A DNA stretch of 24,000 nucleotides from Staphylococcus sp. IVB6181. Lineage in GTDB: Bacteria; Bacillota; Bacilli; Staphylococcales; Staphylococcaceae. The DNA is taken from assembly GCF_025561445.1 (NCBI RefSeq), contig NZ_CP095096.1, positions 141,822 to 165,821 on the forward strand. Direction: 5' to 3'. Below the pieces are notes generated by a model, which saw nothing but the letters and a program-made list of their open reading frames with translations, was not told where the DNA came from and ran no database searches. The position numbers were made by a program, and so were the translations under genes. Below, piece after piece: positions 7,156-17,853 of the stretch. The first letter of the stretch is position 1. The number at the start of each line of letters is the position of its first letter.

Positions 7156-8517
7156 ATGGCAGAATTAACTTATGAAAATATTCATGATTTTTATCATAAA
7201 CATAAAGGACAAGATAATGTAGAAGTGCTTCAGAGCATGTCACGCTTAGATTTAATCGGCTTTCTTGCGACATTTTACCAATTGAAAAATCAAGTCAAAG
7301 CTTTAGAAGATGAATATGAAGCTTTATTGATTGAAAATGAAGAACAAAAATCAATAATGGCATCAGATATTGAGCAAAAGTATCAACAAAGTAAGCAAGT
7401 TATATATGATGATTATGTAGAACAAAAACAAAAGGGAAGTTTTCTTCAATCTCATTTGAATCAAAATGGACTTTTAAAATCCTATTTATGGATAGCACTC
7501 ATTAGTACAGTGATTACAACGATAGTAGGTTCTATCTTCATAAACTTTATCGTGGCGATGCTTGGAGGAAGACCTATATTGATGAAAGAAGCCTTTTTCC
7601 TTGTTGTGACAAGTTTAATTTATAGTTTTGTGATTAACTTGATACTCGTCATGACCCCATTAAAATCGAAACAGGATTGGCGTACCAAGCATCAAACAAC
7701 GCTTTTGAGAGGGAGTTCGATTGTTTTAGCAGCAGTGCTTGCTTTCCTTCCGATGGTCGTCATTACAATAATAGGCGGTGAAGCTTCGGACATGATTAAG
7801 TCCTTTACACAAATTTTATTCATGTTTGTAATTGTGCCGCTATTTATTTTAAGTTGGCTATGCCACTATATATTAAGTCATATTGTACCTAAGCATAATG
7901 AAGGAGTAACACAGCGTTATTATAAAGAGGCAGCTAAACGCTATCCTGATAATCAGCTTCGAGAACAACTCACTGTCAATCAAAGCTTAGCACAATTAGA
8001 TCAAGACTTTTATCAAACGCAACAAGATATTGAGACGAATCCTAAATTTAGTGAAAATCTACCTCAATTACAAGAAAAGCTAGACTTACTGTCTAACTTC
8101 ATCCCAATTAAATTTCAATCTGATGAATTATTAGCTGAGTTAGTGGCACATTTAAGTGAAGGGTATGCGGAAAACTGGAAAGAGGCCATTAAAGAAGCAA
8201 GAAATGAATCACACCATAGAGAAATCAGCAGTTACTTAGCCTCTTTGCATGATACGCTCAATCGTTTCTACCAAGACTCCGTGCGTTACTATCAAAATTC
8301 TATGCGAAATCAGCAACAAATCAATCAAACGCTTCAAGGCACACAAGTCTTATTGTCAGAAGTCAATCAACAAGCAGCTGAAACCACTGACGCCATAAAC
8401 CATTTACGTAACAAAATGGATAATAACCATCGTCAACAGCAAGCATTGATCCAGAACATTGACCAAGAAGTGATGCTTCTCACGTCAAATCGAAAAGTGC
8501 GTATATATTTAGTTTAA
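7156..8517 (+). CDS. Hypothetical polytopic membrane protein with N- and C-terminal coiled-coil/Q-rich regions
   Basis: 453 aa with a GGAGTGAG Shine-Dalgarno sequence. Hydrophobic core at about aa 105-235 (4-5 TM segments), flanked by heptad-like charged/Q-rich segments. Has its own terminator. No recognisable catalytic motif. Confidence 0.6.
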   Translation: MAELTYENIHDFYHKHKGQDNVEVLQSMSRLDLIGFLATFYQLKNQVKALEDEYEALLIENEEQKSIMASDIEQKYQQSKQVIYDDYVEQKQKGSFLQSHLNQNGLLKSYLWIALISTVITTIVGSIFINFIVAMLGGRPILMKEAFFLVVTSLIYSFVINLILVMTPLKSKQDWRTKHQTTLLRGSSIVLAAVLAFLPMVVITIIGGEASDMIKSFTQILFMFVIVPLFILSWLCHYILSHIVPKHNEGVTQRYYKEAAKRYPDNQLREQLTVNQSLAQLDQDFYQTQQDIETNPKFSENLPQLQEKLDLLSNFIPIKFQSDELLAELVAHLSEGYAENWKEAIKEARNESHHREISSYLASLHDTLNRFYQDSVRYYQNSMRNQQQINQTLQGTQVLLSEVNQQAAETTDAINHLRNKMDNNHRQQQALIQNIDQEVMLLTSNRKVRIYLV

Positions 8518-8628: not shown

Positions 8629-9702
8629 ATGTCTTGCACAACAGAGTTGTTGGAGGCTTTAGTAGAGTTTAATAGTGCGAATCAAGCTATGGCGAATAAG
8701 ACAATCGATTTTTGCGAACAATGGCTGAAAGACAAAGGATTAGAAGCTGAAGTGCTAATCAATGAAGGGTATAAGATGCTGGTTTGTACAGTAGGTAAAG
8801 GTGAACAGAAGATAATTTTCAATGGACATGTGGATGTGGTAAGCGGTGAACCATATCAATTTCAGCCTGAAGTAAAGGATGACAAAATGTATGGACGCGG
8901 AACTGCAGATATGAAAGGCGGACTTTCTGCCATGATGGCAGCCATCACTGAGTTGAGTACATTAGACTTAGGCAATACCTCAGTTCAGCTGCATATTGTG
9001 TCTGATGAAGAAACCGGAGGTAACTTCTGTACTTCTTATTTAGTCGATAACGGTTATTTAGGCGACTTTGCGATTTGCGGTGAACCTACGCAATTAGGTG
9101 TAGGCTATAAAGCAAAAGGTGTTTTGCAAATGGATATGTTCTTTGAAGGCAAACCTGCACACGGCAGCAGGCCGTGGGAAGGTGACAATGCGATCATAAA
9201 AGCTTTTAAGACATATGAAGCTATAAAAGAACTGCCGTTCGCAAAAGTTTCGAGTGATTTATATGATGCCCCTTCAATCAATCTTGCTAAAATACTCGGC
9301 GGTGATGCTTATAATAAAGTACCGCAAAAGTGTGAGATGAATGTTGATATACGCTATTTGCCAGAACAATCCAGTGCAGAGATACTTGAAGAAATAAAAG
9401 AGATTACAGATGCCAACGTCAAGATTCATTATGAAGCTGTGCCGGTTAATAATGATATTGAAAGCAAGCCTATGCAGCTAATGCTAAGTTGTATCGAAGC
9501 AGCAACCCATTCTTCACCAAAAGTCTTCGGTCAGCATGGTACTTCTGATGCGGCTTATTATTTAAAACATGATGTACCAGCAATAGAGTTCGGACCTTCT
9601 GGTTCAGATTGGCATGGGGAAGGGGAGTATGTTGAACTGAAATCTATAGAATCATACCAAACAATTCTCGTTAATTTCGTACAAAGCTTCAGCCGAAAAT
9701 AA
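8629..9702 (+). CDS. M20-family metallopeptidase/deacylase (ArgE/DapE-like)
   Basis: 357 aa. Metal-binding motifs NGHVDVV, GRGTADMKGG and VSDEETGG. Shine-Dalgarno sequence TAGGAGGGG. Confidence 0.88.
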   Translation: MSCTTELLEALVEFNSANQAMANKTIDFCEQWLKDKGLEAEVLINEGYKMLVCTVGKGEQKIIFNGHVDVVSGEPYQFQPEVKDDKMYGRGTADMKGGLSAMMAAITELSTLDLGNTSVQLHIVSDEETGGNFCTSYLVDNGYLGDFAICGEPTQLGVGYKAKGVLQMDMFFEGKPAHGSRPWEGDNAIIKAFKTYEAIKELPFAKVSSDLYDAPSINLAKILGGDAYNKVPQKCEMNVDIRYLPEQSSAEILEEIKEITDANVKIHYEAVPVNNDIESKPMQLMLSCIEAATHSSPKVFGQHGTSDAAYYLKHDVPAIEFGPSGSDWHGEGEYVELKSIESYQTILVNFVQSFSRK

Positions 9703-9832
9703 AAAAGAATGAAAAAATCTTAGGAAATTAAAAACAGTATAAGCCTTGTCAAATCAACACTTGTTACACGACCGTCACTCTTACTTCAGACAAACGGCAG
9801 TCTGACCTTTGGGTTTAAAATATTACTCTAAG

Positions 9833-9877
9833 CTAAAAAAGGAAGTATCGTTACCTAAATATAGGTATTGATACTTC
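9833..9877 (-). terminator. Intrinsic terminator downstream of the NERD gene
   Basis: Stem GAAGTATC (9842-9849) / GATACTTC (9870-9877) with inner TACCTA/TAGGTA pairing. On the minus strand the hairpin is followed by CTTTTTT. Confidence 0.6.
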
Positions 9878-9952
9878 AAGCTTTGTTTGTATTAAAAAGA
9901 AGAAAGAGGAAGGTAGTTATATTTATGTGATTATTATTGGTAGAGCATTGGG

Positions 9953-10684
9953 TTAGTGGATATTAATAATTGTTGCATCGTTATTAGCAAATTTATTCAA
10001 GGTCTCACAATGAGACATAATTGTGGCACTGTCCATATTTTTACGTGACTTGTTTCTTTGGATTTTCTTTCGGATTATCGTGCTCAATTCTTGTTCTGAT
10101 GAAGGTGTTTCAACATACTTATAAGCATTGCCGACGAATAGTTCACCTTCTCCCCTATGGTTAAAATAAATAATGTTTTCGATGAAGTCAGTTTTTAGTA
10201 CACTTTGGCAAAATGTTGTAGATTTCATTACTTGTTGGAAGGGATGTCCATATTTTTTGAATTGAAATTGATTGTTTTCATTACAAAGTATAAAGGTCAT
10301 ATAACTATCATCGTTGTCAGTGAATAAGTATTTTTTCAAACCATCAAGATTATAGTCTTTTAAATTATCTTTGTGGAAGTTAAAGTAAATATCGCCTTTC
10401 CAATGTTTGGTTTCTATTGCAAAGAAACCATGATCACAGATGACAAAGTGATCTACTTGATGAATTTCTTCTTCATTTTCAACAATAATATTATTATATA
10501 TTGCATAGTTTTTTATAAGCTTTTCTTCTTTTAAATTGAGAAATAACTTTTGCAGATGATTACTTGTTATTTGCTCTCCGATATTGAGTGATGACTGTAA
10601 CAAGTGTTCAAGTGTTTTCACCTTTTTATTTAGCTGTGTGTTTTGCTGCTGGAGTGATTCTAGTGAATTGTTGTGCATAGGCAT
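9953..10684 (-). CDS. NERD (nuclease-related domain) protein with N-terminal coiled coil
   Basis: 243 aa. NERD / PD-(D/E)xK-like core VDHFVICDHGFFAIETKHWKG. Shine-Dalgarno sequence GGAGGGA 5 nt upstream of the ATG. Divergent from the helicase operon. Confidence 0.75.
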   Translation of the reverse strand: MPMHNNSLESLQQQNTQLNKKVKTLEHLLQSSLNIGEQITSNHLQKLFLNLKEEKLIKNYAIYNNIIVENEEEIHQVDHFVICDHGFFAIETKHWKGDIYFNFHKDNLKDYNLDGLKKYLFTDNDDSYMTFILCNENNQFQFKKYGHPFQQVMKSTTFCQSVLKTDFIENIIYFNHRGEGELFVGNAYKYVETPSSEQELSTIIRKKIQRNKSRKNMDSATIMSHCETLNKFANNDATIINIH

Positions 10685-10830
10685 GTATTCCCTCCGTAGT
10701 TAATAGTATTATAGAAAAAGTTTTTTGCAATAGTGTTTAATTACAAAAGTACAATGATACAATAGGGGTTGCATACAATTATTTGACCATCTGATTTAGT
10801 TCAAAGCTATTATGAATGGGAGGAGTTAAA

Positions 10831-12360
10831 GTGTCAATACCAAAGCTGATTGGACATCAAACTGAAATTCTATATGTGCCAGATAATCAAAACATGGTAA
10901 TTACTGGTAGTGCTGGATGTGGTAAATCATTATTAGCTATTTATCGTATTTATTGGCTCTCTAAAAAGTATCCAACAGAAAGCATAGTATTGTTAACCTT
11001 TAATAGAGCAGTTAACGATGATATGAATCGTAAACTAAAATACTTAGCAGAGCAATGGGGAGATGGGTTACCTCAGAATTTGACAATAATGACCTATCAT
11101 AAATTTATGAGAGAAGTATTACAGAAATTAGTTGCAAATTACTCTGACAGATACTATGAATTGAACAAATACATAGGTTCAAAAAAATTGATACCTTACA
11201 ATAGTAATAGGAATGTACAAATTAAAGCAGCATTAGAAAAAGTTAAAGAAAAATATAGTGATGAAGATGAAAGTACGTTTAATCGCCCATTACAAACATT
11301 TATTGATGAAGTAATTTGGCTACAACAAATGTCAGTGGATTCATATGAGATGTATGAAGAAATGGAACGCATTGGCAGAAGAGGGACACGTGTAGAGCGG
11401 TCTAAACGCAAATATTTTTATGAAGTATATGAAGCGTATTTAGGGATAAGACAAGAGGAAAATCGTTATTTTGATTTTGAAGATATTGGATCGATAATTT
11501 GTAAAATTATTGAAAAGCTCAAAGATGAACCTAATATTGAAACACTTACGAGTTATAAGTATATATTAGTGGATGAGTTTCAAGATTTTACTTCGGATAT
11601 GTTGAAAACAGTTAATGTATTAAGTGATAGCACAGGAGCAATGGTTCTATTGGGAGATATTAATCAAGGTGTATTCGGAAAAAGGATCTCTTATAAGTCT
11701 TTAGGTATAGATATGAGGAGTTATAAAAAGTATCAGCTCAATCAAAATTATCGAAATAGTAAGCCAATTAGTGAGTTTGCATTGAAACTATCTCAATCTA
11801 AGTATTTTGATAAAAGTAATGAGTTCTATGCAGAGGCTAAACTAGGGGTTGGAGAAGGACCTAAACCTAAAATTATGAAGTACGATAACGAAAGCGACGA
11901 ACTAACAATGATGTATCAGTTTCTTTCAAGTAATACCATTCAGCAGACGGATAGAAGTGTTTGTGTCATTTTACCAACAATCAAAGCACAAGAATTTACA
12001 GGTTATATGAAACATCATGGGCTAAATGTAGTGAGTGTTAAAGATAAAAATAAATTTGAAATAAGTAAATTATTCTATGGAACATATCGAGAAATAAAAG
12101 GTCTGGAGTTTGATATTGTCATTATGCCATTTTTAAGCGAATCTATATTTATTGAAAGTATTATGAATGACAACAAAGAACTTGAAATTGATAAAGATGA
12201 TTGGGACTTAGAAGATATAGACGATGAAATTTTAGAGGCATATATTGCTCAATATTATGTCGGTGTAACGCGTGCTAAGGAAAAGTTAGTGATTATTCAT
12301 TCAGGAAATAGAACTCCACTTATGCCTGAAGATTTATTTGGTGAATATGTTGAAGAATAG
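10831..12360 (+). CDS. UvrD/PcrA/Rep-like SF1A helicase
   Basis: Motifs present: Walker A GSAGCGKS, Ia LLTFNRAV, II YILVDEFQDFT, III LLGDINQGVF, IV LNQNYRNS, V EIKGLEFDIVIM, VI YVGVTRAKEKLVII. The GTG at 10831 sits 5 nt after GGGAGGAG. The ORF-track ATG at 10816 lies inside that Shine-Dalgarno sequence, so it is less likely to be the start. Confidence 0.88.
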   Translation: MSIPKLIGHQTEILYVPDNQNMVITGSAGCGKSLLAIYRIYWLSKKYPTESIVLLTFNRAVNDDMNRKLKYLAEQWGDGLPQNLTIMTYHKFMREVLQKLVANYSDRYYELNKYIGSKKLIPYNSNRNVQIKAALEKVKEKYSDEDESTFNRPLQTFIDEVIWLQQMSVDSYEMYEEMERIGRRGTRVERSKRKYFYEVYEAYLGIRQEENRYFDFEDIGSIICKIIEKLKDEPNIETLTSYKYILVDEFQDFTSDMLKTVNVLSDSTGAMVLLGDINQGVFGKRISYKSLGIDMRSYKKYQLNQNYRNSKPISEFALKLSQSKYFDKSNEFYAEAKLGVGEGPKPKIMKYDNESDELTMMYQFLSSNTIQQTDRSVCVILPTIKAQEFTGYMKHHGLNVVSVKDKNKFEISKLFYGTYREIKGLEFDIVIMPFLSESIFIESIMNDNKELEIDKDDWDLEDIDDEILEAYIAQYYVGVTRAKEKLVIIHSGNRTPLMPEDLFGEYVEE

Positions 12361-12370
12361 GAGGTAAAAA

Positions 12371-13072
12371 ATGTTTGAATCAATTTTAAAAGAGCGTGAA
12401 ATTACGAGATTATGTCACTTCACTAAATCTAAAAACTTACCTTTTATTTTAGGTGAAGGCATAGATAGTGACGATGGTATTCTAGCGAACAATTTTATAT
12501 CTGATACTTCCTTTCTCGATAAAACAGATAAAGATAGATATGATAAGCATGAAGATTACATATGCACTTCTGTGCAGTATCCGAACTGCTATTATTTTTC
12601 ATCAGTATTAAAGAGAAGTATTAATCAGATTTTTAATGAATGGGTTATTTTATTAATAGATCCAAAAGTTATTGATCAAACTACTAAATTTTGTTCGGTT
12701 AATGCTGCTACGAAAGGGGGAACATTAATAGAAAAGGGTCCTGAAGCATTAGAAAAAATGTTTGATGAAGTAGTAGTAGGAAAAACCGACTTTTATAGAC
12801 CAGATAGTTATCCAGATAATACCCCGACTAATATACAAGGTGAAGTATTGGTATACAAAAAAGTAGCAAAAGAAGATATTATTGGACTTGTCTTTCCAAC
12901 TGATAAAATTGCTGAGAATGAATGTTTACGGTTAGAACTTTGTGGTGTGAATATCAAAGATTATGATATTGTTTCGTCCAGCGATTTATTTGAAAAGAAA
13001 GAAGTGGTGAAATTATTAAAAAAAGGTGAGTTGCCTTATGAAAAGGTGATGAAAATAAGTAATCATGGCTGA
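12371..13072 (+). CDS. DarT/DUF4433-like ADP-ribosyltransferase (putative toxin/effector)
   Basis: 233 aa. The motif order matches the DarT-type ART fold: ITRLCHFTKSKNLPFIL (His16), DYICTSVQYPNCYYF, KFCSVNAAT, and catalytic-type QGEVLVY (Glu158, nt 12842-12844). AGGAGG Shine-Dalgarno sequence. 10-nt gap after the helicase stop. Confidence 0.65.
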   Translation: MFESILKEREITRLCHFTKSKNLPFILGEGIDSDDGILANNFISDTSFLDKTDKDRYDKHEDYICTSVQYPNCYYFSSVLKRSINQIFNEWVILLIDPKVIDQTTKFCSVNAATKGGTLIEKGPEALEKMFDEVVVGKTDFYRPDSYPDNTPTNIQGEVLVYKKVAKEDIIGLVFPTDKIAENECLRLELCGVNIKDYDIVSSSDLFEKKEVVKLLKKGELPYEKVMKISNHG

Positions 13073-13727
13073 TAGATATGTATATTATATAGATAATCAA
13101 AGCTCGAAATTTATGAAAGAAAACATTACATTTCAATGGTATCCTGGATTTGCAAAAAAGCAAAAACAAAAGAGCGTGGTTAGTTTACACGAAGCATTTT
13201 TGTCATGTTTTCCTACCTCCAATGTACTTGAAGTATCGAGTAAATCTACAAATTCGGTGGGGGTTCAGGCAAGTGCATTCAATCTCAGTATTCAGACGGT
13301 AAAAGGACACACATTTACAGTTGAACAATTATTTCAATCTAGTAAAGTTTATAAAAAAGCAGGACGACACAACTATATGTTGAGAGACGGCTATACATCA
13401 CGAGAGATGAAATTAAAATTAAAGCAAATAGACTCAAATGATGTAATGATTAGTTACCACTGCTTCGGAAGAGATTTCAAGTTGGAGCCCAAAACACTTT
13501 TCTATAATTGGTTATATGTTAATGCGTTAACTCAAAATGAAAAACTCGCTAATGAAATTCTAAAATATGATGCGTTTACTGATATAGAATTCAACCCTAA
13601 ACGTTCCTATAATTGTCAGGCAGAAGCATGCTCTATTTATGTTTCACTTGTTAAAAGAGGTTTGTTAAATAAAGCATTAGAGAATTTGGAATCATTTGAA
13701 AGTGTTGTTTATGGTAAAGGTGAGTGA
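13065..13727 (+). CDS. Hypothetical protein translationally coupled to the ART gene (candidate antitoxin/partner); family not recognised
   Basis: 220 aa. Its ATG overlaps the ART stop codon (ATGGCTGA, 8-nt overlap). I could not see any macrodomain, NADAR, PARG or ARH signature. Codon usage is consistent with the neighbouring genes. Confidence 0.6.
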   Translation: MADRYVYYIDNQSSKFMKENITFQWYPGFAKKQKQKSVVSLHEAFLSCFPTSNVLEVSSKSTNSVGVQASAFNLSIQTVKGHTFTVEQLFQSSKVYKKAGRHNYMLRDGYTSREMKLKLKQIDSNDVMISYHCFGRDFKLEPKTLFYNWLYVNALTQNEKLANEILKYDAFTDIEFNPKRSYNCQAEACSIYVSLVKRGLLNKALENLESFESVVYGKGE

Positions 13728-13949
13728 AACTGAAATTTTATGATGAAAGATAATGAAATAGACAAGTAAGACTACGGATCCTTATACAAAATGAGTGGAA
13801 AACATCGTATAAATTTAATCGATATAACATTTCTTTACTTTAAAGGAATTATGATAATTTTAGTAATCTAATTCCAAATAACTTTAATAGAAAAACACAT
13901 TTGGATAACTTAAAAAGACATCCTGACATGGTCAAATAGTAGTTTGAAC

Positions 13950-13983
13950 TGCTCCCTGTCAAGTAGACAGGAAAAAAACAAAA
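13950..13983. repeat. IS terminal inverted repeat (orfB-distal end)
   Basis: TGCTCCCTGTCAAGTAGACAGGAAAAAAACAAAA matches the reverse complement of 15740-15773 at 28/34 positions. Confidence 0.8.
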
Positions 13984-14021
13984 AATAATTTATTGGGAAT
14001 CTGATAAACAAATTTTAAGTT

Positions 14022-14065
14022 ACTGTACAAATGAGTTGATAAATCTCGTTTGTACAGTTTTTTTA
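14022..14065 (+). terminator. Strong intrinsic terminator inside the IS 3' non-coding region, oriented against the transposase genes
   Basis: 14-bp stem ACTGTACAAATGAG (14022-14035) / CTCGTTTGTACAGT (14045-14058), 9-nt loop, then a run of seven T. Confidence 0.75.
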
Positions 14066-14092
14066 TTCTCCTAGCGCACTATCGTTTGCTTG

Positions 14093-14141
14093 ATCTGGTA
14101 AAAAAAGTGGTGCGCTACGCACACTACTTCTTTTACCAGAT
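14093..14141. repeat. Long imperfect hairpin/inverted repeat within the IS, downstream of orfB
   Basis: ATCTGGTAAAAAAAGTGGTGCG - CTA - CGCACACTACTTCTTTTACCAGAT. On the minus strand the inner stem is followed by TTTTTTT, so it may act as the orfB terminator. Confidence 0.5.
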
Positions 14142-14167
14142 TATTTAGGGTAGACATTAGTTAGAAG

Positions 14168-14956
14168 TTAAGCAATTAATCTTTCCATTTCCAAAGTAAT
14201 TCTCTCATTGTTGTAAAAATCAATGTATTCTTTAAACTGCGAGCGTGCAGTTTTTATATCCTTGAATTTATAATGTCTATTACCGCGATAAATTTCTGAT
14301 TTCATTATTCCCCAAAATGATTCCATTGGACTATTATCTATGCATCGTCCGACTCGTGACATGCTTTGAATAACACCTTGCTCATCGAGCAAGAATTTAA
14401 AATGTTTGCTTGTATATTGAAAACCTCTGTCGCTATGTAGTATTAAGCCGCTTATATTTTTCACTTTCTTTAACGCTTTATTGAAAGTATTAAAAACCAG
14501 CTGATTGTTATTTGAATAACTTATATCATAGCTTACAATTTTACCTGTTCCGAGATCTCTGATAGCGCTTAAATAAAATTTCCTTCCATTTTCTAAAATA
14601 AGTTCTGTCACATCTGTTACCCATTTTTTGTTAGCTTCCGTTTCACTAAATTCTCTATCTAATAAATTCTCTGCAGTAATAGTAGGTGTTGAGGGTCTAT
14701 ATCTTTTTCTTGCAGCACGTATGCAAGATTTTAGACCTAATTTTTTCATTAAACGATATACTCGTTTACGACTTACTTTTTTATCCAGTCTTAAACAGAT
14801 ATATATACGAATACGACGATAACCATATTTACCGTTGTATTTATTGAAAATCCACAAGATTTCTTTCATTAATATTTCATCTTCAATTTCACGCTGTGTT
14901 TTAAATTCTCTTCTCTTTCTCCACTTATAATAACTGGCTCTAGAAATTCCAACCAC
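14168..14956 (-). CDS. IS3-family transposase OrfB (rve/DDE catalytic domain), normally made as an OrfAB fusion
   Basis: DDE triad context WVTDVTE, LHSDRGFQYTS, DNSPMESFWGIMKSE. The frame stays open upstream of 14956 to the slippery site at 15064-15070 (..KKVEGERKRADQSPFRQIVEYLVIEDLKNEYPITLLCKVVG..). Confidence 0.9.
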   Translation of the reverse strand: MVGISRASYYKWRKRREFKTQREIEDEILMKEILWIFNKYNGKYGYRRIRIYICLRLDKKVSRKRVYRLMKKLGLKSCIRAARKRYRPSTPTITAENLLDREFSETEANKKWVTDVTELILENGRKFYLSAIRDLGTGKIVSYDISYSNNNQLVFNTFNKALKKVKNISGLILHSDRGFQYTSKHFKFLLDEQGVIQSMSRVGRCIDNSPMESFWGIMKSEIYRGNRHYKFKDIKTARSQFKEYIDFYNNERITLEMERLIA

Positions 14957-15015
14957 CTTACATAACAGAGTTATTGGATATTCATTTTTTAAGTCTTCTA
15001 TTACAAGGTACTCAA

Positions 15016-15720
15016 CTATTTGTCTAAACGGCGATTGATCAGCTCTCTTTCTTTCTCCTTCAACTTTTTTAAAATCTTGTTTTCCATTTCTAAGTATTTG
15101 ATTCTTTCTTCAAGAGCTTTTGTTTTAGCTAATGCTTGTTCTTCATCAGTCATTGTCTGAGTTGGCTTACCTTTACCTCTTCCGTCTACAAGACCGGCAC
15201 TTCCAAATTGTTCATATTTTTTAACCCAACTATATACTTGGCCATAATTAACATTATATTTTAAAGCTGTTTTCTTATAATCTTTTTCTGACTCAATACA
15301 TGCTTCTACTATTTCTACACGTTCTTCGAACGTTGTTTTTCTCGCTTTCATTGAATACACCCCTAGTAATGGAGAATATGAAACATTCTCTTTTCCTAAA
15401 GTATATCGTTTTATCCAATCCCTAACAGTAGAATATGCTGGAATATTATATTTTATTGCTAAATCAACAGCAGAAACACCTTCAGTTAAGTATTCCTGAA
15501 CAATTGTTTCTTTAAATGCTTTACTATAAGTATTATTGCTTTTCTTTGGTAATAGTACCTCAACGCCATGTACTTTATATTGGTGATATTTAAACATCAC
15601 CTGTTTACGATTTAATTCTATACCACTCTTTTCTATAGCTTCATTACAACTATAACCTTCATCTATTAAACTAAATGTTAAGAGAAATAATTTAATGTCA
15701 CTTTCGAGATATTTAGACAT
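15016..15720 (-). CDS. IS3-family transposase OrfA (multi-HTH DNA-binding protein with C-terminal leucine-zipper-like helix)
   Basis: 234 aa. HTH-like segments (SAVDLAIKYNIPAYSTVRDWIKRY; KKTALKYNVNYGQVYSWVKKY) and C-terminal heptads LEERIKYLEMENKILKKLKE. Shine-Dalgarno sequence GGGGGAG. Confidence 0.9.
   Translation of the reverse strand: MSKYLESDIKLFLLTFSLIDEGYSCNEAIEKSGIELNRKQVMFKYHQYKVHGVEVLLPKKSNNTYSKAFKETIVQEYLTEGVSAVDLAIKYNIPAYSTVRDWIKRYTLGKENVSYSPLLGVYSMKARKTTFEERVEIVEACIESEKDYKKTALKYNVNYGQVYSWVKKYEQFGSAGLVDGRGKGKPTQTMTDEEQALAKTKALEERIKYLEMENKILKKLKEKERELINRRLDK
15064..15070 (-). promoter_or_regulatory. Programmed -1 ribosomal frameshift heptamer A_AAA_AAG (orfA to orfB)
   Basis: The minus strand reads ttA AAA AAG in the orfA zero frame. 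A -1 shift here joins in frame to the open orfB frame. Confidence 0.8.
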
Positions 15721-15724
15721 AAGA

Positions 15725-15774
15725 ATGCTCCCCCTATAGTTTTGTTTTTTTAGTGTCTACTATAGGGGGAGCAT
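15725..15774 (-). promoter_or_regulatory. Hairpin pairing the outermost IS terminus with the orfA Shine-Dalgarno region
   Basis: 16-bp perfect stem ATGCTCCCCCTATAGT (15725-15740) / ACTATAGGGGGAGCAT (15759-15774). The arm next to orfA carries the GGGGGAG Shine-Dalgarno sequence on the minus strand. Confidence 0.6.
15740..15773. repeat. IS terminal inverted repeat (orfA-proximal end)
   Basis: Its reverse complement, TGCTCCCCCTATAGTAGACACTAAAAAAACAAAA, matches 13950-13983. Confidence 0.8.
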
Positions 15775-15963
15775 ATCATCATAGGAGTCGGGTGCTTTAT
15801 TTTATGGAATTACTACATGTTTAAGGAGAGAGATTTGTAAGGAAAAAAGAGATGATAATTATTCAGGTAATGGAAAATATTATATAATTATAAAGAGTAA
15901 AGATTTAATGGTGAGCAGGCTAAAATATCTAGGTCTATACGGGATTAGACTTTCAAAAATAAG

Positions 15964-16035: not shown

Positions 16036-16703
16036 ATGTATACTGGGTATTTTAATGTTATTTGCAAATTAGTCTCTTTGTTACTGCGTTGTCAAAATGA
16101 ATATACCGAAAAGTTTTTAAATAATTATACTACTACTTACAATTTGAAAAAGTATTGTGTGTATAAAATTATTGATAAAAAGAGTGAAGAATATATTTTT
16201 GATTGGAATTTCCTAACTTATCTCAATGGATATTGTGATAAGTTAATAGAAGTACAAATTGAACTTGAAGAAGAAATTGGAAATCACTTCAAAATAAGTA
16301 TAGATAGTAGAGTTAAGCAACCAGAATCAAGGTTGTCTAAACTGTTAGTGTATAGGTTTGAAAAGATGAAAAAGGAAAGACACCATTACGTAAATGTTTA
16401 AATGACTTGTTTGGATGCAGGTTAATTTTAGATATTTCTAATTTGGAAGATTTTTTTGAACAACTAAACAAATATTTAGATAAAACATTAAATATTAAAA
16501 CAACCTATAATGATAAAAACGGGTACAAAGCTGTCCATATTTATTTACGTGGTGAAAATAACAAGTGTTTTCCATGGGAAATACAAATTTGGAATAGCAA
16601 AGATGAAGAAAGTAATAGAGAATCGCATAGTAAATATAAACAAGATTATTTAAAATGGCCCAAAATAGTAAAGGAAATAATTGTGACAAAGGAGGGAAAT
16701 TAA
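16036..16703 (+). pseudogene. RelA/SpoT-homologue small alarmone-synthetase-like toxin (toxSAS), split by a 1-nt frame change in an A5 run
   Basis: ORF 16036-16401 carries SRVKQPESRLSKLL. ORF 16407-16703 carries DLFGCRLILD (when the frame is extended upstream), GYKAVHIYLRG, WEIQIWN and SHSKYK. The two frames overlap at atgAAAAAGg (16366-16375). Adding one base, or a -1 ribosomal slip, gives one protein of about 222 aa. Confidence 0.75.
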
Positions 16704-17450
16704 ATGTTTAAACATTTTCTGTTGATAATACCTGATCATAAACATGGACGTAGGGTTGGATGGCATAAATTAATCACCGCTGCGGATGACTATAAATATA
16801 TAAAACACACTGTGCAAAAGATAACTTCTGAAGTAGGGGGAGCACAACTTGCGTCACATATAATCACTACAGATTCAGATGAAATTAGTTCTATAAAACA
16901 AAAAGACACGTTTTTTTCAGATATTGATTTTTTTGAAAATGAGGATGACTTTATAAATTATTATAAAAATGAAAAAGAACTTACTGCTAATGATGTGGCT
17001 AACTACATTTTAAGTTATGGGAAAAATATTACTCATTTGAAACTACAAAAGTTAACGTATTTGTGTTATGAGAATGTATTAAAAAAATTAAATTTCAAAC
17101 TTTTTGATGATAATATATATGCCTATAAACTTGGTCCTGTAATTGATAGCATATATTCAAGGTATAGAAATGGTGGTAAAGATATATTAGATATTGAAGA
17201 GGATGATAGTATTTACCTTTCTGAAAGTGATTTGTTAATAAAACCGTCCCTAAGCAGAGTATTGTTTTCAGAGAATGGAGTTAAGGTTTTGCAAGTTATT
17301 GATACTACATTAGAAGAATATATTGATTATTCAACGAGTGCATTGGTAAATATTACCCATGAAGAAGGAACTGCTTGGAATAACACATATATAGAAGGCG
17401 TAAAGAATAACATAATATCTGATGAACAGATATTAACAAGTAGTAAATAA
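16704..17450 (+). CDS. Panacea (DUF4065/SocA-like) domain antitoxin, PanA-like
   Basis: 248 aa. Panacea core ANDVANYILSYGKNITHLKLQKLTYLCYE...YAYKLGPVIDSIYSRY. The ATG directly abuts the toxSAS stop (TAAATG), and AAGGAGGG lies within the toxin's 3' end. Confidence 0.75.
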   Translation: MFKHFLLIIPDHKHGRRVGWHKLITAADDYKYIKHTVQKITSEVGGAQLASHIITTDSDEISSIKQKDTFFSDIDFFENEDDFINYYKNEKELTANDVANYILSYGKNITHLKLQKLTYLCYENVLKKLNFKLFDDNIYAYKLGPVIDSIYSRYRNGGKDILDIEEDDSIYLSESDLLIKPSLSRVLFSENGVKVLQVIDTTLEEYIDYSTSALVNITHEEGTAWNNTYIEGVKNNIISDEQILTSSK

Positions 17451-17529: not shown

Positions 17530-17853
17530 GTAGTACTTGGTATGGAAGACTACTTGGCGGTGAAAATTCGTTACAAGTTTGACAGTATGAGCTATTAGTG
17601 AATGACAAGGAAGTCAATCGTGAGGTAGAACCTAAAGGAAGCCGGACGCAAAGACTCGTACTGAGGAACAAAGACTTCATAGAGAAGCCTCATAAAAAGA
17701 AACATATTCCAAAAAATTGAAAAGGAATTTATAGAAGCGCCACAAGAGTTAAAGTATCTATTATATTTTAAGAAACTAAATCATAAAGAAACGCAAGAGT
17801 TGTATGAACTGATGAACAATATATTGTACAAATATAGTAAACATCCCATTTGA
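17530..17853 (+). pseudogene. Decayed MarR-like transcriptional regulator remnant (multiple frame breaks)
   Basis: Frame-hopping translation gives ..RTQRLVL / TEEQRLH.. / KIEKEFIEAPQELKYLLYFKKLNHKETQELYELMNNILYKYSKHPI*. This resembles a MarR wing plus C-terminal helix. No ORF of 60 aa or more is present. Confidence 0.3.

Follow-up and report, generated by a model that had tools for sequence, protein, structure and literature searches.

What keeps a predicted DNA-modifying toxin in check when no macrodomain antitoxin lies beside it, and why should a helicase gene abut it? The question is raised by a DarT-like gene in a 24,000-nucleotide stretch of the Staphylococcus sp. IVB6181 genome (contig NZ_CP095096.1, positions 141,822 to 165,821), called the window below and numbered from its first letter. 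An earlier note had described the open reading frame (ORF) at 12371-13072 as a DarT-like ADP-ribosyltransferase (ART) in a noncanonical context, with a helicase upstream and no macrodomain partner. The ORF and the upstream helicase are indeed present and the neighborhood holds no macrodomain gene, but the toxin gene is not without a partner, as a NADAR antitoxin gene lies directly downstream of it. We read positions 10816-13727 as a three-gene, co-oriented, tightly packed operon, DarH-DarT-NADAR, that would form an anti-phage module of the toxin-antitoxin type, and we put the probability of this reading at roughly 0.7. This gene set combines two toxin-antitoxin systems already known from phage defense, in a hybrid that has been little described. 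The present analysis shows what the genes are, that their catalytic motifs are intact, that the gene order is conserved, how the clades are structured, and that the antitoxin is swapped; the chemistry of DarT1 and NADAR and the helicase requirement in the DarHTG system are taken from the literature. The locus comprises the following features:

9953-10684, minus strand: nuclease-related domain (NERD) protein, 243 amino acids (Pfam PF08378, E 3.5e-11)
10685-10815, no strand: divergent intergenic region between the NERD and helicase genes, presumed promoter region (read from the sequence)
10816-12360, plus strand: DarH-like superfamily 1 (SF1) UvrD-family helicase without a 2B domain (PF00580, E 6.5e-25; PF13361)
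12371-13072, plus strand: DarT-family ADP-ribosyltransferase toxin, 233 amino acids (PF14487, E 5.4e-14)
13065-13727, plus strand: DarT1-associated NADAR antitoxin of the ADP-ribose-guanine hydrolase type, 220 amino acids (PF22397, E 2.6e-72)

The toxin has an intact DarT active site

The product of 12371-13072 matches the DarT family over residues 15-184 with 52.8 bits against a cutoff of 22.5, and its sole significant sequence match in the PDB (phmmer) is the DarT1 of E. coli C7 (8BAQ, E 7e-17). The motifs that had been picked out by eye lie where they were placed, with LCHFT at residues 14-18 (containing H16), SVQYPNCYYF at 67-76, FCSVNAAT at 107-114, and QGEVLVY at 156-162, whose E158 aligns with the catalytic position that was mutated (E152A) in the crystallized C7 enzyme. 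An AlphaFold2 model built with 45 homologs (mean predicted local distance difference test score, pLDDT, 90.3; predicted template modeling score 0.89) is closest in Foldseek to 8BAQ (E 3.9e-14, template modeling score 0.72, 31% identity), so the fold is that of an ART, and DarT2 structures come next (7YK3 and 7OMY, E about 1e-5 to 1e-6, 14-16% identity).

Alignment with C7 DarT1 pairs H16, F17, T18, D53, and R56 of the window protein with H17, F18, T19, D49, and R52, and D58, S67, N111, Q156, and E158 with D54, S63, N104, Q150, and E152. All of these residues are invariant in both of the DarT clades described below, and the catalytic His and Glu together with the Arg/Asp proton relay (H16, E158, R56, and D58) are invariant among 74 sequences. 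Judged by its sequence, this is a genuine DarT-family ADP-ribosyltransferase with its catalytic residues intact. NCBIfam holds no model for either DarT or NADAR.

The C-terminal tail (residues 185-233) that the earlier note had been unable to place is modeled confidently, with pLDDT of 90-95 at residues 181-230 and 59 at the extreme C-terminus. It proved to be an extension specific to the helicase-linked clade, in which 68-82 residues follow the catalytic Glu, versus 48-57 in nearly all canonical DarT1, making the tail about 20 amino acids longer. This tail is a candidate interaction surface.

A NADAR antitoxin overlaps the toxin gene

In addition to its match to PF22397, the product of 13065-13727 matches the NADAR of Geobacter lovleyi (8BAT) at E 1e-52. 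Alignment of the window NADAR with its relatives showed E87, K94, K116, and D173 to be invariant, and these correspond by spacing to E88, K95, K115, and D171 of C7 NADAR, the residues of guanine de-ADP-ribosylation according to Schuller et al. 2023 (PMC11543638). In that work DarT1 was found to ADP-ribosylate the N2 of guanine in single-stranded DNA (ssDNA), and NADAR to reverse this, even when the NADAR came from a noncognate species (PMC11543638). Some NADARs also reverse cytidine ADP-ribosylation (PMC12945103). By homology and residue conservation, the ORF can be assigned as a DarT1-associated NADAR antitoxin.

The arrangement of the three genes is compact. The helicase stop codon and the DarT ATG are separated by 10 nucleotides, the ATG is preceded at 7 nucleotides by a GGAGG Shine-Dalgarno sequence, and the DarT and NADAR genes overlap by 8 nucleotides at the DarT stop codon (ATGGCTGA).

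This arrangement bears on the version proposed in the earlier note, in which an active ART has no antitoxin and the helicase is its sole control. The lack of a macrodomain gene in the neighborhood speaks for such an orphan, but the DarT stop codon lies within a NADAR gene whose catalytic residues are conserved, and every relative has a NADAR or an ADP-ribosylglycohydrolase (ARH) in third position, which leaves the orphan hardly credible. The related suggestion that the enzyme is gated by the helicase rather than by an antitoxin holds insofar as the helicase is linked to DarT, but an enzymatic antitoxin is present in addition.

A helicase without a 2B domain precedes the toxin gene

Read from the ATG at 10816, the helicase ORF has 514 amino acids; translation probably starts instead at a Val codon at 10831, after GGGAGGAG, giving 509 amino acids, which is the length called in other assemblies. 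The protein contains a Walker A motif GSAGCGKS (31-38), DEFQD (253-257), QNYR, and VGVTRA. Between motifs IV and V it has 83 residues versus 249 in PcrA, about 166 fewer, which indicates that the 2B domain is absent. Its AlphaFold2 model (pLDDT 87.9) finds its best fold matches in UvrD, PcrA, and Rep, with UvrD 2IS4 at the top (E 7e-20). Neither the Walker A nor the DExx motif is disrupted, and the ATPase may be needed for defense.

A helicase of this kind is known from DarHTG (Liu-DS3), described in April 2026 in Nucleic Acids Res, which consists of DarH (a UvrD-like helicase without 2B), DarT, and the ARH-like DarG3 (PMC13069673). DarHTG protects E. coli against T4, T5, T7, and SSL_2009a, and its defense requires both the DarT active site and the ATP-binding residues of DarH, mutants of which lose defense (PMC13069673).

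One database fragment of 180 amino acids (P0054) carries a helicase C-terminus (..VEVTRARSGLIISYS) in frame with a DarT N-terminus (ERGITRLIHFTKTKNL..). This single sequence, of staphylococcal type, may represent a fusion that exists in nature or may have arisen in assembly; a fusion hints at physical coupling of helicase and DarT without discriminating among the possible roles of the helicase.

The helicase-DarT adjacency is conserved across phyla

About 25 distinct loci, drawn from Bacillota, Actinomycetota, Pseudomonadota, and viral contigs, have the gene for a UvrD-like helicase without 2B directly upstream of DarT. In all five reference-genome relatives (S. ureilyticus, an Enterococcus, two Clostridia metagenome-assembled genomes (MAGs), and a Paraclostridium; DarT identity 39-64%), a homologous helicase (28-56%) abuts or overlaps the DarT start. 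The same order is found in S. gallinarum, Macrococcus equi, E. faecalis, Listeria, B. velezensis, Paenibacillus graminis, and B. cereus, as well as on Ralstonia and Streptomyces plasmids and on three IMG/VR viral contigs. A reciprocal search starting from the helicase recovered homologs at 49%, 29%, and 26% identity (from Staphylococcus, a MAG, and Nocardia, respectively), each followed by DarT. Canonical DarT-NADAR pairs are different: a metagenome scan seeded with NADAR yielded 80 loci, among which 27 canonical pairs were informative in having at least 1.5 kb of upstream sequence, and none of the 27 had a helicase. Since DarT adjoins the helicase in every helicase-clade locus examined, across three phyla, the helicase is no chance neighbor but is functionally linked to DarT.

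The alternative would be an ordinary two-gene DarT1-NADAR pair that happens to sit beside an independent module made of NERD and a UvrD-like helicase, the helicase having nothing to do with DarT. The NERD and helicase genes do form a divergent pair, every staphylococcal copy has NERD along with the helicase, and the helicase matches a PADLOC candidate "NERD+UvrD" model at E 1.2e-16. Such independence is nevertheless improbable, because the helicase-DarT adjacency, with overlapping or near-abutting stop and start codons, is kept without NERD in three phyla and on viral contigs, because helicase homologs as low as 26% identity are still followed by DarT, and because the canonical DarT1-NADAR pairs without a helicase fall in another clade; in addition, the NERD protein has no PADLOC match, and the helicase is essential in DarHTG (PMC13069673).

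A tblastn search of the INPHARED phage genomes found no match to the window DarT. One lone, weakly matching DarT-like gene (P0055, 35% identity), with neither helicase nor hydrolase beside it, was set aside.

Two DarT clades and exchange of the third gene

A neighbor-joining tree of DarT sequences separates canonical DarT1, including that of E. coli C7, from a helicase-linked sister clade that includes the window DarT. The helicase-linked clade has a signature of its own, consisting of Y or F at the position of C7 M71 (Y75 in the window), variability at that of Y73 (S77), an aromatic residue at that of S26 (F25), and N at that of R35 (N40).

The third gene of the helicase clade encodes either a NADAR or a protein of 488-607 amino acids with an ARH domain (PF03747). 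NADAR is found in the window, other staphylococci, Macrococcus, Paraclostridium, and loci L025 and L078, and ARH in Enterococcus, Listeria, Bacillus, Paenibacillus, Nocardia, Streptomyces, Ralstonia, and viral contigs; the loci with ARH include L002, L004, L012, L014-L016, L018, and L101-L104. In the NADAR tree the staphylococcal-type proteins group as a separate clade, in agreement with the DarT tree, and the NADARs of L005 and L078 are placed among the canonical ones, which suggests at least one independent antitoxin exchange. NADAR is also the partner in the group sister to the helicase clade, which comprises L023 and the HsdS fusions described next; it is thus plausibly the ancestral partner and ARH a replacement, a polarity that we propose tentatively from the distribution of genes.

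In that sister group, NADAR is fused to the specificity subunit of a type I restriction-modification (R-M) system (PF22397 plus PF01420, Methylase_S) in proteins of 645-651 amino acids (L024:3936-5873, L027:2246-4201, L028:5001-6956, L030:2447-4384, and L031:5001-6938), with DarT directly upstream and no helicase. Some of the long ARH antitoxins carry a C-terminal glyoxalase/bleomycin-resistance-like domain (PF00903/PF12681; L103:4684-6486 and L101:6103-7926). Two other DarT architectures were also seen. On plasmid pC052_C of Nostoc sp. C052 (L105; NZ_CP040275.1, 86817-95347), beside the BREX gene pglZ, a gene for a large AAA-domain protein is followed by genes for a 531-amino-acid protein with a C-terminal DarT and for an ADP-ribosylglycohydrolase, and on a viral contig (L112:1576-3982) a NADAR is flanked on both sides by DarT-like ORFs (DarT-NADAR-DarT).

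The predicted target is guanine in single-stranded DNA

The earlier note had treated the target of the enzyme as wholly open. N111, which is equivalent to the guanine-coordinating N104 of C7 DarT1, and the NADAR catalytic set are both conserved, and they point to guanine in ssDNA as the most likely base target. The annotation of the window DarT as "DUF4433" or "thymidine ADP-ribosyltransferase" is likely wrong about the base.

A target other than guanine in ssDNA, such as RNA, a different base, or a base within a specific sequence context, would be compatible with the near-substrate substitutions in the window protein (C7 M71 to Y75, Y73 to S77, S26 to F25, and R35 to N40), with the relatives that have an ARH-type hydrolase in place of NADAR, and with the ability of some NADARs to reverse cytidine ADP-ribosylation as well (PMC12945103). 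We consider it unlikely, given that N111, Q156, R56, and D58 are invariant, that the NADAR belongs to the DarT1-associated family and has the catalytic residues of guanine de-ADP-ribosylation, and that the closest fold is DarT1 rather than DarT2.

A proposed mechanism and the role of the helicase

From the gene content and the chemistry of the relatives, we infer the guanine target, the defense role, and the action of the helicase, and propose the following scheme. DarT would use NAD+ to ADP-ribosylate a base in ssDNA, most likely guanine at N2 as in DarT1, and replication would be blocked. NADAR, translated from the overlapping start, would continuously remove the adducts from host DNA and thus act as an enzymatic, type IV-like antitoxin. 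DarH, as an obligatory third component, would use ATP to translocate on or unwind DNA. On phage DNA that is invading or replicating, this activity would either generate the ssDNA substrate of DarT or bring DarT to its site.

The helicase could instead be a regulator or chaperone, holding DarT inactive or stabilizing the antitoxin so that the toxin is freed upon meeting phage DNA or protein. There is precedent in ietHAS, whose helicase appears to act as an antitoxin-type regulator and causes toxicity when mutated (PMC13069673); the conserved extra segment of about 20 amino acids at the DarT C-terminus could be a docking surface, and an in-frame helicase-DarT fusion (P0054) appears in one database fragment. 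Set against this, the ATP-binding mutants of DarHTG lost defense with no toxicity reported (PMC13069673), all of the motor motifs of the helicase are conserved, which argues for real translocation, and DarT enzymes require ssDNA, exactly the product of a helicase. A regulatory helicase is a minority possibility.

Several points weigh against the DarH-DarT-NADAR module as we read it. Helicase-DarT-NADAR systems are known from their genes alone, and the helicase may be a substrate supplier, a sensor, or a regulator, even in DarHTG. The assignment to DarHTG was made by architecture and by clustering with helicase-DarT-ARH loci, and the trees are neighbor-joining trees without support values. The PADLOC DarT model matches the window DarT weakly (E 7e-6), and the window NADAR is matched by no model in PADLOC-DB 2.0.0. 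Finally, throughout the helicase clade C7 M71 is replaced by Y or F, Y73 is variable, and R35 is replaced by N; in C7 DarT1 these positions are among those in contact with DNA or with the oxocarbenium intermediate, so the base or sequence preference may differ.

Comparison with known systems

The window shares with DarHTG a UvrD-like helicase without 2B upstream of DarT and a gene for an ADP-ribose hydrolase directly downstream, and by sequence its DarT and helicase both group with their counterparts from helicase-DarT-ARH loci of Bacillota, Actinomycetota, and Pseudomonadota. It differs in that the third gene is a NADAR (PF22397) rather than an ADP-ribosylglycohydrolase (PF03747, as in DarG3) and that the staphylococcal copies have an extra divergent NERD gene. 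In 5,426 E. coli genomes, blastn found no match to two helicase-DarT-ARH loci, and a protein search with the Ralstonia DarT found 805 relatives, with none named E. coli among the 120 matches listed.

DarTG1 (DarT1-NADAR of E. coli C7; Schuller et al. 2023, PMC11543638; LeRoux et al. 2022) has the same order of toxin and then NADAR in overlapping genes, and the closest solved structures to the window proteins are C7 DarT1 and the Geobacter DarT1-associated NADAR, with the catalytic residues of both enzymes conserved. However, DarTG1 was described as a two-gene operon (PMC11543638), a form seen without a helicase in all 27 informative metagenome loci, whereas here a helicase gene abuts the toxin gene; moreover, the window DarT lies in the sister clade and does not group with C7 DarT1 (in a neighbor-joining tree without support values). 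DarTG2 (DarT2-DarG of Thermus and M. tuberculosis) is more distant. It has the ART fold, the H...E catalytic framework, and the combination of an ssDNA-modifying toxin with an enzymatic antitoxin, but identity is 14-16%, DarT2 is thymidine-specific and has His at the position of N111, and its antitoxin is a macrodomain, of which there is no gene here.

Gabija, a two-gene defense system, was also considered, as the best PADLOC matches of the helicase are models of GajB (E 7e-22), likewise an SF1 UvrD-like ATPase that is an accessory or sensor in a defense operon. It was rejected: no GajA (OLD/TOPRIM nuclease) partner lies within 9900-14000, and the structural match of the helicase to GajB is much weaker than those to UvrD, PcrA, and Rep.

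By its gene content, then, the window system appears to be a hybrid that joins the helicase-DarT core of DarHTG to the NADAR antitoxin of DarTG1. NADAR is unmentioned in the DarHTG paper (PMC13069673), a literature search found no paper combining DarT, UvrD, and NADAR, and a search for DUF4433 together with helicase likewise returned nothing relevant. With this finding, the recently described DarT systems that depend on a helicase reach into Gram-positive staphylococci and take in a second antitoxin chemistry, unrelated to the first. One helicase-DarT core served by either NADAR or ARH is a natural experiment that constrains the toxin adduct, and this pair of systems offers a tractable way to distinguish substrate supply, phage sensing, and toxin regulation as the role of the helicase. 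Such systems may go unannotated by PADLOC-DB 2.0.0, since the NADAR is unmatched and the DarT matched weakly.

A NERD gene accompanies the staphylococcal copies

In every staphylococcal-type locus a homolog of the NERD gene precedes helicase-DarT-NADAR in divergent orientation, with similarity to E 6e-42 (L010:2619-3326, L020:1928-2635, L021:1917-2633, L022:748-1521, and L099:3131-3841). The gene stays with the cassette across three distinct chromosomal settings, its sequence divergence parallels that of the other genes, and it is absent from the nonstaphylococcal helicase-DarT loci. NERD is thus a candidate accessory fourth component specific to the staphylococcal copies. No PADLOC model matched the NERD protein at E 0.01 or better. 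The PADLOC candidate system NERD+UvrD (C3a187) was set aside: the helicase match to its model PDLC01087 (E 1.2e-16) stands well below the GajB matches, and NERD is unmatched.

More tentatively, NERD/DarH-DarT-NADAR might be a distinct four-component defense system of an ancestral type linking DarTG1 and DarHTG; we hold this to be possible but doubtful. In such a system a constitutively active helicase lacking 2B would supply a guanine-specific DarT with ssDNA drawn from invading DNA, NERD would be a second effector or a sensor, and in DarHTG an ARH antitoxin would have taken the place of NADAR at a later stage. Under the same scheme, since one DarT clade is paired with two hydrolases of unrelated families, the DarHTG adduct could be taken to be ADP-ribosyl-guanine.

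Genomic setting and neighboring genes

The cassette lies within a low-GC stretch (about 30% versus about 40%) and is preceded by a peptidase M20 gene. The identical DarT protein carries the NCBI label "MULTISPECIES ... [Staphylococcus]", and a 98%-identical helicase is assigned to S. simulans; the staphylococcal chromosome is probably of this species. Relatives of the cassette adjoin McrBC, a type I R-M system, a Cap4-type nuclease gene, an arbitrium-type prophage region, and a reverse-transcriptase gene, and these neighbors fit a defense role. A consensus scan of 9600-14300 found 22 promoter-like sites where 26 were expected from shuffling, a number not above expectation, and a scan of the same interval found no convincing terminator between NADAR and the insertion sequence (IS) that follows.

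That element is an IS3-family insertion sequence on the minus strand at 13945-15778, with transposase genes orfA at 15016-15720 and orfB at 14168-14956 (rve) and imperfect terminal inverted repeats of 39 nucleotides at 13945-13983 and 15740-15778. Contig breaks just past NADAR in several assemblies from this species are consistent with an IS3-family repeat there.

On the other side of the cassette, between the genes for a major facilitator superfamily transporter and peptidase M20, a 453-amino-acid ORF (7156-8517, plus strand) matches no Pfam family; its product is predicted to contain membrane segments as well as coiled regions rich in Q. The window and loci L007-L009 have this ORF and the otherwise syntenic L006 lacks it, so it is a strain-variable insertion. 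At 17614-17762 (plus strand) there is a match to Rfam RF02001, the D1-D4 region of a group II intron (39 bits, gathering threshold 32), which is probably an intron remnant, given that no reverse-transcriptase ORF lies nearby.

A second toxin-antitoxin locus lies beyond the IS element, where a small RelA/SpoT-type alarmone synthetase toxin (toxSAS-like, 16036-16703) is followed by a SocA/Panacea-domain antitoxin gene (16704-17450). The toxin gene is split by a frameshift near 16365-16405 into ORFs of 121 and 98 amino acids; joined conceptually, the pieces match Pfam RelA_SpoT at 34.6 bits against a threshold of 27, which the second piece alone (23.5 bits) fails. This locus is probably a decayed toxin whose antitoxin, an intact SocA/Panacea-domain gene, has been retained.

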